Part shown: in pieces, positions 1-62,533 of the stretch
Layout of the letters: every line of letters begins with the position of its first letter
Position numbering within the stretch: the stretch's first letter is position 1
Assembly (NCBI GenBank): GCA_964016885.1
Contig: OZ024748.1
Coordinates: 22,196,001-22,260,000, forward strand
Reading direction: 5' to 3'
Source of the DNA: Eledone cirrhosa
Taxonomy: Eukaryota
Length of the DNA stretch: 64,000 nucleotides
The notes under the pieces: generated by a model
What the model was told of the DNA's origin: nothing
Database searches by the model: none
Seen by the model: the letters and a program-made list of their open reading frames with translations, nothing else
Position numbers and translations under genes: made by a program

Positions 1-45
1 ACCTTATTTACTGTGGTTACCCCAGATTGAACCCGGGATAAACAT
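1..45 (+). mobile_element. 3' tail of TA-inserted mini-element, family H (continues upstream of the window)
   Basis: accttatttactgtggttaccccagattgaacccgggata matches the reverse complement of 32511-32555. Confidence 0.7.
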
Positions 46-302
46 ATATATAACCATCTTTTCACTTCTTATTAATTTGTGTTTGAGACAGGTTGGCTGA
101 AAACTTTTGACGGGAACGAAAATATTTGTTTTCTATTCTCCTGCCACCAGGTAAAGTATGTAAATCGGTGGCTGGTCGGGGGACAGAATTGTATTAGATT
201 CCAGTTGCTAATCACTTTACTGTGTCGGCCGTCACAAACAGTCATAGCCGGCGTGGGCTGGGTTTGGATTCTGTCGATTGATTGGTTATTGATTAGTCGA
301 AA

Positions 303-413
303 CCCGCTGATGAAGCCACATACGCCGATTATGCATTGTTGCATAATATATGCAGACAGAGAGTGCAGTGCACCCTACTGCTGCATTAAGTGTGGCCGAA
401 ATTCGAGTCCGGG
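303..413 (+). ncRNA. Type I hammerhead ribozyme with long helix II, inside a ~50-562 insert ending in (TA)n
   Basis: Helix I cccg/cggg; core CTGATGA 307-313; helix II gccaca...tgtggc; GAAA 398-401; helix III A-ttcgag-T (near-palindrome); GTC cleavage triplet 407-409. Confidence 0.8.
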
Positions 414-842
414 AATTATTATAGGCACCCGTTTTCCGTGTGTTGTATTGAAGCGAATAACTATGTCTATACTCTGGGAATGTATCCTACATTACCTATT
501 GAGTACGCTGTGATAGAACAGGTCCTGGCATTGATAAATATGCTGGGTCCGTCAACTCCTTATTATATATATATATTTATATATATATATATCTGTATAT
601 ATATATATAAATGAGCGAGAATCGTATTTCAGCTCTGGAATTAACGAAAATCAACGTCCGATATGTGTGGCAAGCGCTCGATGATTCATGTGAATCAGAG
701 CTACAACATACGTTAAGGGCCAAACACACTGAGATGATGGTTAAACAGATCATCCGCACGGCCAAAACAAACGACCAAGTAATTCGGGTCAAACAATAAA
801 AATATATGTGTTGATAAATATATATATATATATATATATATA

Positions 843-58769: not shown

Positions 58770-59630
58770 ACGGGCTGCAGTACTTGAGTGGTTCTTACTT
58801 TATCGATTCTAGGATGATGAAAGGTGAAATCTAACTCAATAAGATTTGAACATAGATTTGGAACTTAAAGAGCCGTAATTGAAACGAAAAGATATTTGGC
58901 TAGACGATATACTTATTTTGACAACAATTTCGGAGGAAGGGGAACAGTATTTGACTGTTACTTTATTTTTTCGACACCATAAGGATCAAAACAAAGTTGA
59001 TATCGGCAGGATTTGAACTCGGAACGTAAAGAGAAGACACTATATACTGCATATAATTTTCTTTGACGCTTTACTGATTCTGCCAATAATAATTCTTGTA
59101 GTGTTGGCACAAGGCCAGCAATTTGGAGGAAGAGAAAAGTCGATTATATCGACTTTTCTACGTAAACGGTACTTTATGTTATTGACCCCGAAAGGATAAA
59201 AAGTTAACCTCGGCAGGATTTGAATACAGAATGTAGAAAGTCGTAACTAAAAGCTGTAAATAACTTCTTTCGACGCTCTAACGATACTGCTAATCCACCA
59301 CCCACTTCTGGTAATAATTGTTTCTACTTTTGGCACAAGGCCAGCAATTACCCCCAGTGCATTACTAGTACTTTAATAACTTCTCGGCTCTTAAGGCGGT
59401 GAATTGGCAGAACCGTTAGAGCGTCGTACAAATGCATAACTGTATTTGTTCCTTCTCTTGGCGTTCTGAGTTCAAATCCCACCGAAGTCAATTTTGCGTT
59501 TGATCCTTTCAGGGTCGATAAAACAAAGCACCACCTACGTACTAGGGTCGATATATTCAACCCACCCACCCAACGTCATAAAAAAAAAAAAATAATTGCT
59601 GGCGTTGTACCTATTTTAGAAAGAATTATT
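58770..59630. mobile_element. Cluster of about five S1 SINE copies and fragments
   Basis: Repeated ggatttgaa, ggcacaaggccagcaatt motifs (minus) and one plus copy at 59394-59630. Confidence 0.75.
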
Positions 59631-62177
59631 ACTGCTGGGCCCGAGTGGCCAATAAAATATTGTTATGCTACATCTATTGTGATTTATTCTTGTTTCTATT
59701 ATTTTTTGTGCGTTCGCCTCCTTCAGCTGTTCTTCACTCCCCCAGCCACCCCTAATATTATTACTAGAGACTGTATGTAACCTTTGTTTTGTTTTTCTGT
59801 TGTTATTTTATCTACTGCCACTGGTAAACACAGGTCATACGTCTTCAACATACACATGAAACACTTGTCATCTTTAGAAGTGTGTGTGCGCGTATGTGTC
59901 TCTATATTTTTATATCTGTGTATGTGGGTGGTCGGAAAATGGAAGAAGGAGGCAGTTTTTTTGTGTGTTTGTTATTTTTTTTTTTCGCCATTGTCATCTC
60001 TGCTATAACTTTAGTAGTCTTTGTTTCATCGTTCCGTTCTCTGTGGTACCATTTCTTCTGGCTAGATTTATTTCCTTCAGCTTCTGTTCCTTTTATAATT
60101 TAAGCATTCGCTCTTCGTTCGGTAAACGATCGTATCTAACGTCGTACGTAGACTACCGTGGGGCAAAGTGATAGAGATAGAGAGAGGGGGGCAGGGTAAT
60201 TCTCTTTAAAGTAAGAGATGATATCTGGTCACATCTGTCTCCCTCGAATGATCACCTCCCTCCCACACACTACCCACCCCTCCCTCTCCTTATCTTCTCT
60301 TTTCTCCACCCCTTTCCTCGCTTATATCACCTTCTTTTCCTTAAGGCTTTTTTTAATTGCGTACTCACACACAAATACACGAATATATATATATATATAT
60401 GTATATATATATATAGGTATATATATATATATATATATATATATATATATATATATATAGGTATATATATATATATATATATATATATATATATACACAC
60501 ACACATATATATATATATACATATATATATATATATACATATATATATACACCACTACTACTAATAATAATAATATTAACCACTCTACATTTTTAAAACA
60601 CCAATTTGAGATCAACAAATTGATATTAACCCATTCATTGCCATATTTCTAATGCTGAGGGGATTGAGGCACAAGGAAATAAAGGGCCACGCTCAAGAAA
60701 AAAAAAAAGCACCACCGGAAACCGAACTAGTTACCTTGCTATTGTAAGATGAACGCCTTAAACCCTAAGATCTGCGCCTTCACATTTATCTCAGAAACGT
60801 TGTTTATTAACAGAGGCTAATAAAATGAAATGAAATTTGATTTAATCCAATTATATTGATCATTTTGACATTCTTTGTCACATTAAAGATTTTGGGTTCT
60901 GATATTAAAATGTTAATTTGCAAAATTGTATATCAATGTGTTCACCTTACGGTCATAAGGTCGTGAGTTCGTTTACCGGTGGTATGTTATCCTTATATAC
61001 ATATTGTATATCTAAAGGAATTATATAATACTGTATAGGCTGATAAATAAATGATAAGGACTATATAATGTCAAATTGTTATTCTCTGAAACAATTTGAT
61101 ATCTGACACTATATTCTATTTTTTAATTTACCATATTTTTCTTTTGTTTATATAACGTCATTTTATTTTTTACTCGGCTGTTTGTTTTCTATTCCAACTG
61201 CAGACATGCATACAATTTAATTTGGAGTTAATGAAATATATAAGGATGTGTATCAGTCACATACCATGGAAGATATTAAGTGAGACATTTTCGTGTATTT
61301 TAATCTATTTGCGTGACATATAAGTCCTATAAAGTGATATGTCAATGAAACTGCCCGAAACAAACATGAGAAAGTATTCCAGGACAGGTAGCGGACTGGA
61401 ACAACATAGGGATCAGAGAAATTATAACAATTATAACACCAAAGAGAAAGTAATTTCCAGAAGGGAAAATACAAAAGATAAAAGCATAAAAATGAAGCAT
61501 AAAGAAATGTTTCCGTTTCACAAATCTCCTTGAAATTTCTTTGATGTTCTTTACCTTTCTCGTTCGTCTCACTGGGATAAAGCTTAATTAACTGATCATT
61601 GCACCAAACATTTTCACATTACTAAACCTTAATTAAATACAAACACATTGACAACGTCAACTCTGTCAGTTTTAATAATTACTACAGGTGTCAGTTCATA
61701 AGACCGTATGGGAAAGAGTTAAAAGCTATAGAGATAGTAACAGGGAAGATATGGGAGATGTGGAGCGGTAGAAGGAAATATGACAAGAACAAAAGGAAAT
61801 ATGACGATGTGTAATAGATAGAGACAGTGGGGGTAGGAGGGGGGAGAGATGGAGAGAAAGGGGGCGAAATATGAGGTAAAAATGAGCAGATGGTAAGACA
61901 ACAAGCAATCTCTATCTATCTATCTATCTATCTATCTATCTATCTATCTATCTATCTATGTATCTATCTATCTATGTATCTATCTATCTATCTATCAATC
62001 TCTCTCTCTCTCTCTCTCTGTATATATATATTGTGTGTGTGTGTATATATATATATATACACATATATATATTTAGCTATCAATCATCCCCATTAAATAA
62101 ATACCCACACATACGCAATACACACATGCGCGCGCGCGCACACACACACACATATATATATATACATATATATATAT

Positions 62178-62533
62178 AAAGAAAAAAAGATGAAATCGAA
62201 AATGCAACTGGAGTCTTATTTTTAAAAATATATATATATTTATTTGGTTCCTTTACCGGTTTCGCAGTTCTTCTGCTTTTCAAAAGTAGAGTTGAGATGG
62301 AGGGTCTGTGGTTTTTCTCACATCTGAGAAAAACCACAGACCCTCCATCTCAACTCTACTTTTGAAAAGCAGAAGTACTGCGAAACCGGTAAAGGAACCA
62401 AATAAATATATATATATTTTTTTAAAAATAAGACTCCAGTTGCATTTTCGATTTCATCTTTTTTTCTTTATACTTTCACTCGTGTAGGACACCTCGGTTA
62501 TTTTTCATTTTGTAAAAATACCTTACTTTCTAA
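62178..62533. mobile_element. Fold-back hammerhead element, family B, with U3-A8 hammerhead at 62359-62394
   Basis: About 145-bp arms centred on ttctca-catc-tgagaa; ctt TTGAAAA gcag..ctgc GAAA ccgg TA aag; tail to ctttctaa(TA)n. Confidence 0.9.

Follow-up and report, generated by a model that had tools for sequence, protein, structure and literature searches.

The short inserts between (TA)n runs in a 64,000-nucleotide stretch of Eledone cirrhosa DNA (contig OZ024748.1, positions 22,196,001 to 22,260,000; hereafter the window) are most probably 5′-truncated pseudo-LTR (pLTR) ends of coding Penelope-like elements (PLEs), laid down by target priming from two ends, together with one non-coding family carried in trans. 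The fold-backs among them were likely made afresh at each insertion. Their structure has already been published (Cervera 2014; Craig 2021), so the large, poorly annotated radiation proposed in the initial annotation is less novel than it was taken to be. What is added here is the recognition of two fixed 3′ ends in every coding family, L (with a tail) and S (without), whose pairing within fold-backs fits two-ended priming.

A hand count on self-BLAST and family mapping gives 30 inserts of about 13 families in the window, in agreement with the roughly 30 inserts and dozen families first claimed. The same comparisons bear out the head-to-head palindromes with one arm extended; only some inserts have this fold-back shape, the remainder being plain stubs. 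Most TA-bounded islands are inserts as proposed, but several are an RTE LINE stub, SINEs or a MITE-like element. Simple repeats make up 38% of the window, and TA arrays dominated its general repeat search; PLE stubs contribute about 8–9 kb (hand sum), missed by both Rfam and Pfam. The genome-wide search for parents covered 10 families, and 4–5 further window families (F9, F11, F12 and F13 among these) have no traced parent. Genomic loci are the best-scoring matches and no random sample; matches of <80% identity or <35 nt were dropped before counting, and copies with identical 40-nt flanks were merged, including some young ones such as the F2 fold-backs L041 and L042.

In nine of the ten families searched, longer copies are contiguous with an ORF of the RT plus GIY-YIG type, and the fold-backs are thus 5′-truncated pLTR stubs. 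The genome-wide search for masters that the initial annotation had suggested as a check recovered coding parents for these nine and upheld the PLE origin. The absence of RT or GIY-YIG ORFs from the window was also confirmed, tblastn finding no PLE protein remnant there, but such absence in 64 kb says nothing about the whole genome. The coding parents comprise eight Hydra-clade families (F2, F3, F3b, F4–F7 and F10) and one Neptune-type family (F1).

The very young F2 is represented in the window by a fold-back at 30897–31404 (cores at 31051 on the minus and 31140 on the plus strand; plus-arm tail of 110 nt). The F3 fold-back (1103–1707; parent ORF L189:2677-4923) joins a tail-less minus arm at 1103–1563 (C3 at 1200) to a tailed plus arm at 1564–1707. 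In F3b (13351–14414), a long tail-less minus arm (C3 at 13458), containing a SINE piece at 13837–13941, meets a short tailed plus arm at 14369–14414; a related subfamily left a plus-strand stub with hammerhead and tail at 2446–2645 (C3 at 2465). The F4 fold-back (3082–4120; parent ORF in loci L183–L185, L187 and L188) has a tail-less minus arm at 3082–3289 and a tailed plus arm at 3288–4120 (C3 at 3615), interrupted by a SINE at about 3802–3987, and an F4-related minus-strand stub at 51663–52069 (self-BLAST and family mapping) is likewise interrupted by a SINE. F5 fold-backs lie at 17712–17939 and 32954–33191 (core CAGAAGA at 17870 and 33035). F7 has a tailed minus-strand stub within a long TA array (42800–43032; C3 at 42996) and, by family mapping of 43473–43856, a fold-back at 43473–43668 beside an F5 fold-back remnant at 43753–43856; the F7 parent ORF start follows the tail in locus L197. 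The F10 parent ORF start similarly follows the tail in L348, and F10 contributes the tailed plus-strand end of a fold-back that starts before the window (1–41; family mapping, L219) and a fold-back at 32514–32702 (degenerate core CTGATAA at 32638, minus strand).

The F6 fold-back at 14456–14659 is cut inside helix II and keeps only the GAAA half of the ribozyme; the full fold, with a TTGAAAA core, is found in L164, L165, L168 and L172. Further F6 fold-backs occupy 33643–33817 (family mapping) and 44864–45051 (arm comparison), and two F6-type inserts share 17153–17519 (a fold-back at 17153–17366 and a subfamily stub at 17384–17519). F6-related subfamilies supply a stub at 14755–14932 (self-BLAST) and a fold-back at 19531–19710 (self-BLAST and family mapping). 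F1 fold-backs lie at 19073–19423 (TTGAAAA cores at 19183, minus, and 19253, plus) and 62175–62532 (cores at 62283, minus, and 62362, plus; 60-nt tail), and an older F1-related one at 33222–33534 (core at 33426, helix II weak). Among the families without a traced parent are a plus-strand F9 stub with hammerhead (2167–2337; C3 at 2197), F11 stubs at 52369–52680 (minus; degenerate core at 52582) and 53534–53721 (plus, 3′ stub; family mapping), F12 stubs at 868–1088 (minus, 3′ stub) and 32267–32418 (plus), both from family mapping, and a TA-bounded F13 repeat stub at 607–807 (minus; family mapping), in which no convincing hammerhead was found; longer F12 copies have a hammerhead fold with core CCGA(A/T)GA (U4C).

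The type element of the Hydra assignment, F2, has an intact 773-aa ORF (L181:2785-5103) in a 3596-bp tandem unit. Its RT is 99–100% identical in 150/150 scored matches, and at least 52 copies share the same 785-codon open frame (hand count among scored RT matches); no RNA run was among the listed matches of F2 to sequencing runs. With one ORF whose AlphaFold model (pLDDT 90) has telomerase RTs as best Foldseek matches, F2 shows the single ORF with telomerase-like RT of the Hydra clade. Features read from F2, and from partial ORFs in F3, F3b, F4–F7 and F10, agree with those given for this clade, including Hydra-1_Obim, by Craig et al. (2021; PMC8557442): a single ORF, RWK (here RVRWK, RVRWR or RMRWK) and DKT (ADKT, FDKT or SDKT) motifs, a CxCX5C linker, CxxC and CxH near the C-terminus and no CCHH (alignment of the four families with the full region), a hammerhead in the pLTR, insertion into (TA)n, and inverted 5′-truncated copies with a one-ended tail. 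The assignment is by motifs, likeness to Hydra-1_Obim being judged by eye. The C-terminus carries an IIY...YVG motif and a two-strand element at 650–669, with no Pfam match; Pfam gave nothing on the Hydra ORFs (seven ORFs scanned, only two F1 pieces matching meaningfully), PDB sequence searches returned nothing relevant, and the listed Foldseek matches of the F2 model were only polymerases, with no GIY-YIG, so that the Hydra endonuclease is read from motifs only. F1 has a Pfam GIY-YIG match (E 6.6e-8) and an RVT_1 match below cut-off; it shows the C-terminal GIY-YIG, the CCHH residues (in L192) and the cysteine linker (partly degraded in L190 and L192) of Neptune, its placement there as against Nematis or Poseidon being provisional.

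Compared with the clade described by Craig et al. (2021; PMC8557442), tails are longer (70–125 nt here vs 30–40 nt), the 3.6-kb F2 unit exceeds the general size of <3 kb, which is a tendency and no strict criterion, and at least eight Hydra families occur in this 64-kb window vs one octopus family in the published table. The long helix II regions and the U4A, U4C and U3-A8 cores seen here are absent from the Hydra rows of File S2 of that study.

The two fixed 3′ ends, found in nine of the ten families, lie 60–125 nt apart in the coding families. (TA)4 was found within 20 nt of 345/404 L ends and 219/261 S ends (together 564/665), compared with 15/106 SINE 3′ ends and 11% of random 20-mers, which supports the (TA)n preference first proposed. 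TA also adjoins 3′ ends of other elements (7/13 RTE and 5/9 other-SINE), and it adjoins only 72/231 unpaired 5′ ends, fewer than mid-array insertion predicts. Among 149 classifiable fold-backs, 142 pair L with S, six are L+L and one is S+S, with 16 more unclassified; in five of the six L+L cases TA is missing from the end of one arm, and the SINE-split F4 insert is the S+S case.

The preferred explanation is that the GIY-YIG domain would nick the self-complementary (TA)n target on both strands. One target 3′ end would prime the telomerase-like RT at L and the other would do so at S, the template being either a single RNA or two RNAs from the same subfamily within one particle. The two cDNAs would usually stop within 100–300 nt and then be joined head to head. 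In its favour, 73/114 resolved joints overlap by 1–20 nt, and F6 arms diverge by 0.058 within inserts vs 0.126 between them, with no S- or L-specific lineage, a comparison that tells nothing in F5 (0.037 vs 0.037) and little in F1 (0.050 vs 0.061). The template would be uncut or religated RNA, because inserts extend 40–270 nt beyond the ribozyme cut site. In L1 twin priming, two target ends prime on the element RNA and an inversion results; the outcome is common to both, whereas here the second start has a fixed position and the arms usually cover overlapping parts of the template. A biochemical parallel is the Poseidon PAc protein of Anolis (Frangieh 2024; PMC11167929), which cuts and extends both strands at AT-rich targets, uses two internal RT start sites bounding a tail in vitro, and does not need ribozyme cleavage for its activity. 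PAc belongs to another clade, its starts lie inside the ORF and not upstream of the ATG as here, and the consulted text on it reports no L/S pairing rule. As it describes no strand difference in start site and no homology of that site to the target, the strict pairing of L with S is unpredicted by that assay.

The place where arms end bears on two further possibilities. Truncation hot spots fall in or near the ribozyme, and the short stubs could reflect run-off, the RT priming on the 5′ pLTR and falling off at the transcription start; as an addition to two-ended priming this is possible but rather doubtful. The hot spots are family-specific, with ends within 60 nt of C3 in 68/86 incidental F6 arms and 45/78 F5 arms, and the L site lies about 55 nt upstream of the ATG and hence close to where a pLTR-driven transcript begins. 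Against this, F2 copies that bear the ORF start at scattered positions (in 30 loci, 10 reach the locus edge and the others range from -662 to +753), no single transcription start being seen to bound the long ones, and the 5′ ends of F8 are scattered too. If run-off did occur, the hot spots would correspond to the 5′ ends of RNAs and not to stalling of the RT.

It is unlikely that a single cDNA folds onto itself at a short inverted repeat of the ribozyme and is its own template, the second arm being DNA-templated. Such a process would suit the 61/114 resolved fold-backs whose arms end no more than 15 nt apart, the frequent overlaps at joints and the clustering of joints in ribozyme helices (F6 at +28 to +62, F5 at -11 to +15 from C3), and it would also give arms sharing variants. 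However, it leaves unexplained the fixed S end of the second arm, which unpaired copies use too, and the many unequal arms, among them L arms that consist of the tail alone and end close to the S site. The longer-reaching arm is S in 56 cases and L in 43, with 15 ties, and the idea that the tailed arm always reaches further is thereby excluded.

Less probable still is the view of the initial annotation that the fold-backs are replicating non-coding mini-retroelements, which are transcribed and then inserted again in trans. In its favour, very short copies abound, a joint with arms at +46 and +50 recurs nine times among 43 resolved F6 fold-backs, and F8 is a case of a non-coding ribozyme unit spreading in this genome. 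Yet coding parents exist for nine of ten families, junctions differ between copies while both arms follow the same subfamily, the recurring F6 joint itself spans different subfamilies, and arm lengths are continuous from <100 nt to kilobases; a replicated fold-back is also unlikely to end exactly at the parental L and S sites on its two sides.

The idea of trans-mobilised, retrozyme-like elements is not supported for the fold-backs and fits one family, F8, a non-coding 838-bp partial-tandem unit with a 5′-truncated plus-strand copy at 50–565 (hammerhead C3 at 307; predicted cut after 409; helix II region 84 nt). Its longest stop-free frames are 86 codons (sense) and 117 codons (antisense), no PLE protein match was found inside the unit, and comparison with the 14 long loci L181–L194 gave no DNA likeness at E 0.01. 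Of 30 loci, 21 exceed 845 bp and two are fold-backs; at most two ribozyme cores per locus were seen. F8 resembles non-LTR retrozymes (Cervera and de la Pena 2020, PMC7229834; Li et al., bioRxiv 10.64898/2026.07.22.740005) in being non-coding and head-to-tail, with one type I hammerhead per unit and a proposed PLE dependence, but these have monomers of 150–450 bp with a canonical ribozyme in multimeric arrays, whereas F8 loci are scattered and hold roughly one unit each, the 3′ end is fixed and lies in (TA)n, and the ribozyme is of the minimal PLE kind. F8 is likely mobilised in trans and could connect the PLEs with the retrozymes. Its tail aligns with that of F10 at a score reached by 1/500 shuffles in one of nine comparisons, a weak lead. 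Pieces of the F8 family also occur in contig sets X1 and X4 of the four sets compared.

The ribozymes of the inserts have the core, stems I and II and palindromic or paired helix III of minimal type I hammerheads. A type I descriptor found nine sites in the window, eight with palindromic helix III, whereas 100 dinucleotide-shuffled versions of the non-repeat islands gave a mean of 1.04 and at most 2; when helix II had to be at least 4 bp long, the figures were five sites vs 0.01. Hammerheads are hence more frequent than in shuffled sequence, the comparison that the initial annotation had proposed. Its claim of complete folds also stood, with core, GAAA, NUH and stem I present at 13/13 coordinates, some degenerate, this check taking the best fold at each named place without a null of its own. 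The core is CAGAAGA (U4A) at 17849 and 33031 and TTGAAAA (U3-A8) at 19249, 33419 and 62359; helix II has only two pairs at 33419, stem I only 3 bp at 62359, and helix III one mismatch at 2457. The cores of F2 and F8 are C3-G8. The Rfam check it had suggested gave no match in the window at gathering score, and no hammerhead family was among the best 150 matches of an E-value run (379 ranked lower), dominated by microRNA models on simple repeats. Cleavage by the ribozyme is predicted to take place in a dimer or with the aid of protein. Like PLE-type hammerheads already described, those found here have a palindromic helix III, an extra base before helix II and the U3-A8 variant, and occur as opposite-strand pairs 100–700 bp apart, most of the motifs described earlier being single and ascribed to truncated PLEs. 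Unlike these, F5, F6 and F10 have a longer helix III and could fold as monomers, and the U4A of F5 was not met in the consulted text on those hammerheads. Chance occurrence of the motifs in AT-rich DNA, or fold-back artefacts of assembly, suggested by the unmet Rfam thresholds and the simple-repeat content, can be dismissed given the shuffles, cores conserved family-wide (TTGAAAA in 49/49 F1 copies, CAGAAGA in 54/65 F5 copies), a stem I pair swapped from G-C to A-T between F10 subfamilies, and arms with independent mutations.

Beyond two-ended priming itself, a tentative extension, somewhat doubted here, is that one PLE particle would deal L strictly to one nicked (TA)n strand and S to the other, the palindromic helix III possibly holding the RNA pair together and the cDNAs stopping and joining at the ribozyme helices. 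F8 would then be a ribozyme parasite of 838 nt living off the Hydra machinery, which keeps the tail hairpin and uses the L start only, and so rarely folds back; repeated insertion may lengthen the TA arrays characteristic of this genome.

The literature search found no paper on these octopus-type families, although Repbase, Dfam and the library accompanying a 2026 paper on octopus repeats (PMC13282606) may contain them; hammerheads and the Hydra clade go unmentioned in the consulted text of that paper. For annotation, the window illustrates how much PLE stub sequence escapes both Rfam and Pfam. The origin of the tandem and inverted structures and of the microsatellite bias is described as an open problem of PLE biology (Craig 2021; PMC8557442). 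For an assay of two-ended priming, the pairing rule makes a sharp prediction, and F2, which seems to be spreading still, offers an intact Hydra-clade protein whose target, (TA)n, is defined.

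Self-BLAST of the islands left after masking simple repeats, which make up 38% of the window (24,180/64,000 bases masked), revealed numerous inverted pairs and dispersed families. The initial annotation had described ~30 hammerhead-bearing inserts of about a dozen families without any RT or GIY-YIG ORF; mapping the family references back gave 30 inserts and ~13 families by hand count, no Penelope-like element (PLE) protein was present in the window, and the fold was found for 13/13 of the proposed hammerheads, some of them degenerate or variant-core. Type I hammerhead sites with a palindromic helix III numbered 8, exceeding shuffled DNA (mean 1.04, max 2, n=100), and a descriptor with stricter helix II retained 5 sites versus 0.01 in shuffles. 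Rfam gave no matches in the window at gathering score. The fold-back inserts, head-to-head inverted pairs of arms, are genuine and mostly of a kind already known. Helix II of the ribozymes at 2465, 3615, and 13458 has an identical C-C mismatch two pairs in; the Hydra lineages they come from, F4 on the one hand and F3b plus its subfamily on the other, are unrelated. Extra hammerhead families absent from the window were also encountered (L041, L042, L070, L011, L049, L101), with helix III sequences ACTAGT, AGTACT, and ACTAATTAGT, and some of them also fold back in TA.

Ten families were searched in the 3.0-Gb assembly containing the window, with the best 40 first-look candidates returned per family (21 for F7). 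The candidate figures give minimum values, not true copy counts, and were at least 333 (F1), 810 (F2), 176 (F3), 478 (F4), 1666 (F5), 3839 (F6), 21 (F7), 3543 (F8), 1771 (F3b), and 3472 (F10), while F9, F11, F12, F13, and the 2446 subfamily were met only within loci fetched for other families. The genome-wide search for coding parents, as had been suggested, joined F2 and others to RT-type ORFs. All 40 scored F2 copies (the best 40 of at least 810) were 100% identical across 300 nt, and a 773-aa ORF lies between two copies spaced 3596 bp from each other. A 217-aa RT piece of F2 used as the query returned 28,576 candidates; 150/150 scored were 99–100% identical, and at least 52 of these 150 contain a 785-codon open frame (hand count). 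No single 5' boundary was seen among the long F2 copies. The top structural matches of the F2 protein model (122-sequence alignment, pLDDT 90.2) were telomerase RTs. ORFs of the same kind were joined to F3 (L189), F4 (L183–L185, L187, L188), F5 (L122, L125, L131, L135), F6 (L172), F3b (L254, L265, L275, L278), F7 (L197), and F10 (L348), either upstream of the ribozyme or ~55–60 nt behind the tail, and their alignment shows the motifs described for Hydra by Craig (2021), whose supplement includes an entry for Hydra-1_Obim with (TA)n preference (PMC8557442). F1 is contiguous with a CCHH-type GIY-YIG and RT, and by motifs alone may be classed as Neptune-type. Other PLE-like ORF pieces with CCHH-type GIY-YIG, unlike F1, lie at L188:8918–9793 and L185:8384–9001, and L194 carries a distinct non-LTR RT. 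At an E-value of 1e-30 or better, public sets contain at least 293 full-length relatives of the F2 protein (P0001–P0120), one of them bryozoan. From these sequences, the Hydra clade appears far wider than its catalogue.

In every coding family the 3' end falls at either of two fixed sites 60–125 nt apart, one with the tail (L) and one without (S). (TA)4 lay within 20 nt of 345/404 L ends and 219/261 S ends, versus 15/106 3' ends of an abundant SINE family taken as the control and 11% of random positions in the same loci, which bears out the proposed association with (TA)n. TA also occurs at 3' ends of RTE (7/13) and a second SINE (5/9), and it adjoins only 72/231 unpaired 5' ends. Among 165 inverted pairs, 149 were classifiable, comprising 142 L+S, 6 L+L, and 1 S+S, where an independent even-odds choice would give about half L+S; TA is present at each outer end in 113 of the L+S pairs. 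Five L+L fold-backs have an arm without terminal TA, which in F2 and F7 continues into the next unit, and the lone S+S is a SINE-split insert (3082–4120). Pattern matching alone placed the start of a CTC...GAG hairpin 0–10 nt behind S in 7/8 Hydra families and found none in F1; F8 also has one.

Overlaps of 1–20 nt were present at 73/114 resolved joints. Among incidental copies, those not selected by the search, arms ended within 60 nt of the hammerhead core position C3 in 68/86 cases for F6 and 45/78 for F5. The sequences themselves establish the coding parents, the two 3' ends, the L/S pairing rule, the flanking TA, and the truncation hot spots. Frangieh (2024, PMC11167929) reported that each of the two DNA strands is cut and extended by a PLE protein, whose RT starts at two internal sites bounding the tail, and that uncut RNA gets inserted. 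In our proposal, two nicked (TA)n strands would each prime, one at L and the other at S, within one particle, and the cDNAs would halt early and then unite through short overlaps. The template may be one RNA or two, and the stops may be stalls or RNA 5' ends. A snap-back origin is possible for symmetric inserts: arm ends lie within 15 nt of each other at 61/114 resolved joints. In F6, which is variable enough for comparing arms (those of F5 and F1 are too uniform), divergence was 0.058 within an insert versus 0.126 between inserts, irrespective of class, and the commonest joint was found repeatedly in different subfamilies.

The F8 copy at 50–565 is part of an 833–839-bp unit that forms head-to-tail repeats and has no ORF. 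A query from its inner part fetched 30 loci, all fitting the unit, of which 21 exceed 845 bp; TA was present at the 3' end in 22 and at the 5' end in 17, and an inverted piece in 2. F8 has a single fixed 3' end, and its ribozyme is mostly intact (modal core and stems in 11/23 pattern-matched copies). PLE coding sequence contiguous with F8 was found in none of 60 loci, some common to both searches. Mobilisation in trans, which the initial annotation had extended to all inserts, would fit F8 alone among the ten families searched, and a coding element colinear with F8 may exist elsewhere in the genome; the other nine families have coding parents. A sequence look-up with F8 gave no match.

Several other repeats share the window. 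Stubs at 16783–17132, 17518–17634, and 30594–30864 are LINE 3' ends that we take to be RTE-type from the motif RLRLAGH...LLWEP...GRP, and copies not adjoining TA end in (TAGA)n. The control SINE family (20966–21157, 3802–3987, 51834–52025, 37078–37508, 56026–56465, and others; 141 matches in fetched loci) interrupts two stubs of F4 type and an F3b arm and is therefore younger than those copies. A MITE-like repeat with short inverted ends, flanked by TA runs, occupies 31507–32055 and 36334–36518. Endonuclease- and RT-like fragments in the translations mark a decayed LINE at 37550–40100, apparently L1/Tx1-type. The perfect 157-bp inverted repeat at 48683–49062, made of a SINE-like piece and with its centre where (ACT)n changes to (TAG)n, is either a different fold-back type or an assembly artefact. 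Minisatellites have units of 48 bp (26244–28158), 16 bp (10069–10680), 46 bp (34820–35546), and 113 bp (11780–12988).

Much of this architecture has precedents in the literature. 5'-truncated inverted copies with a tail on one side and (TA)n bias were described by Craig (2021), and minimal ribozymes, the U3-A8 core, and pairs on opposite strands 100–700 bp apart by Cervera (2014). Retrozymes are regarded as non-autonomous PLE derivatives (Cervera, 2020, PMC7229834; Li, 2026, bioRxiv 10.64898/2026.07.22.740005). The core variant U4A is fixed in F5 (54/65 copies); Perreault (2011) names U4C as a natural variant, and the text search that located this statement returned no U4A. What is new is the number of Hydra families co-existing, an intact young family (F2), the L/S pairing rule with its counts, and F8.
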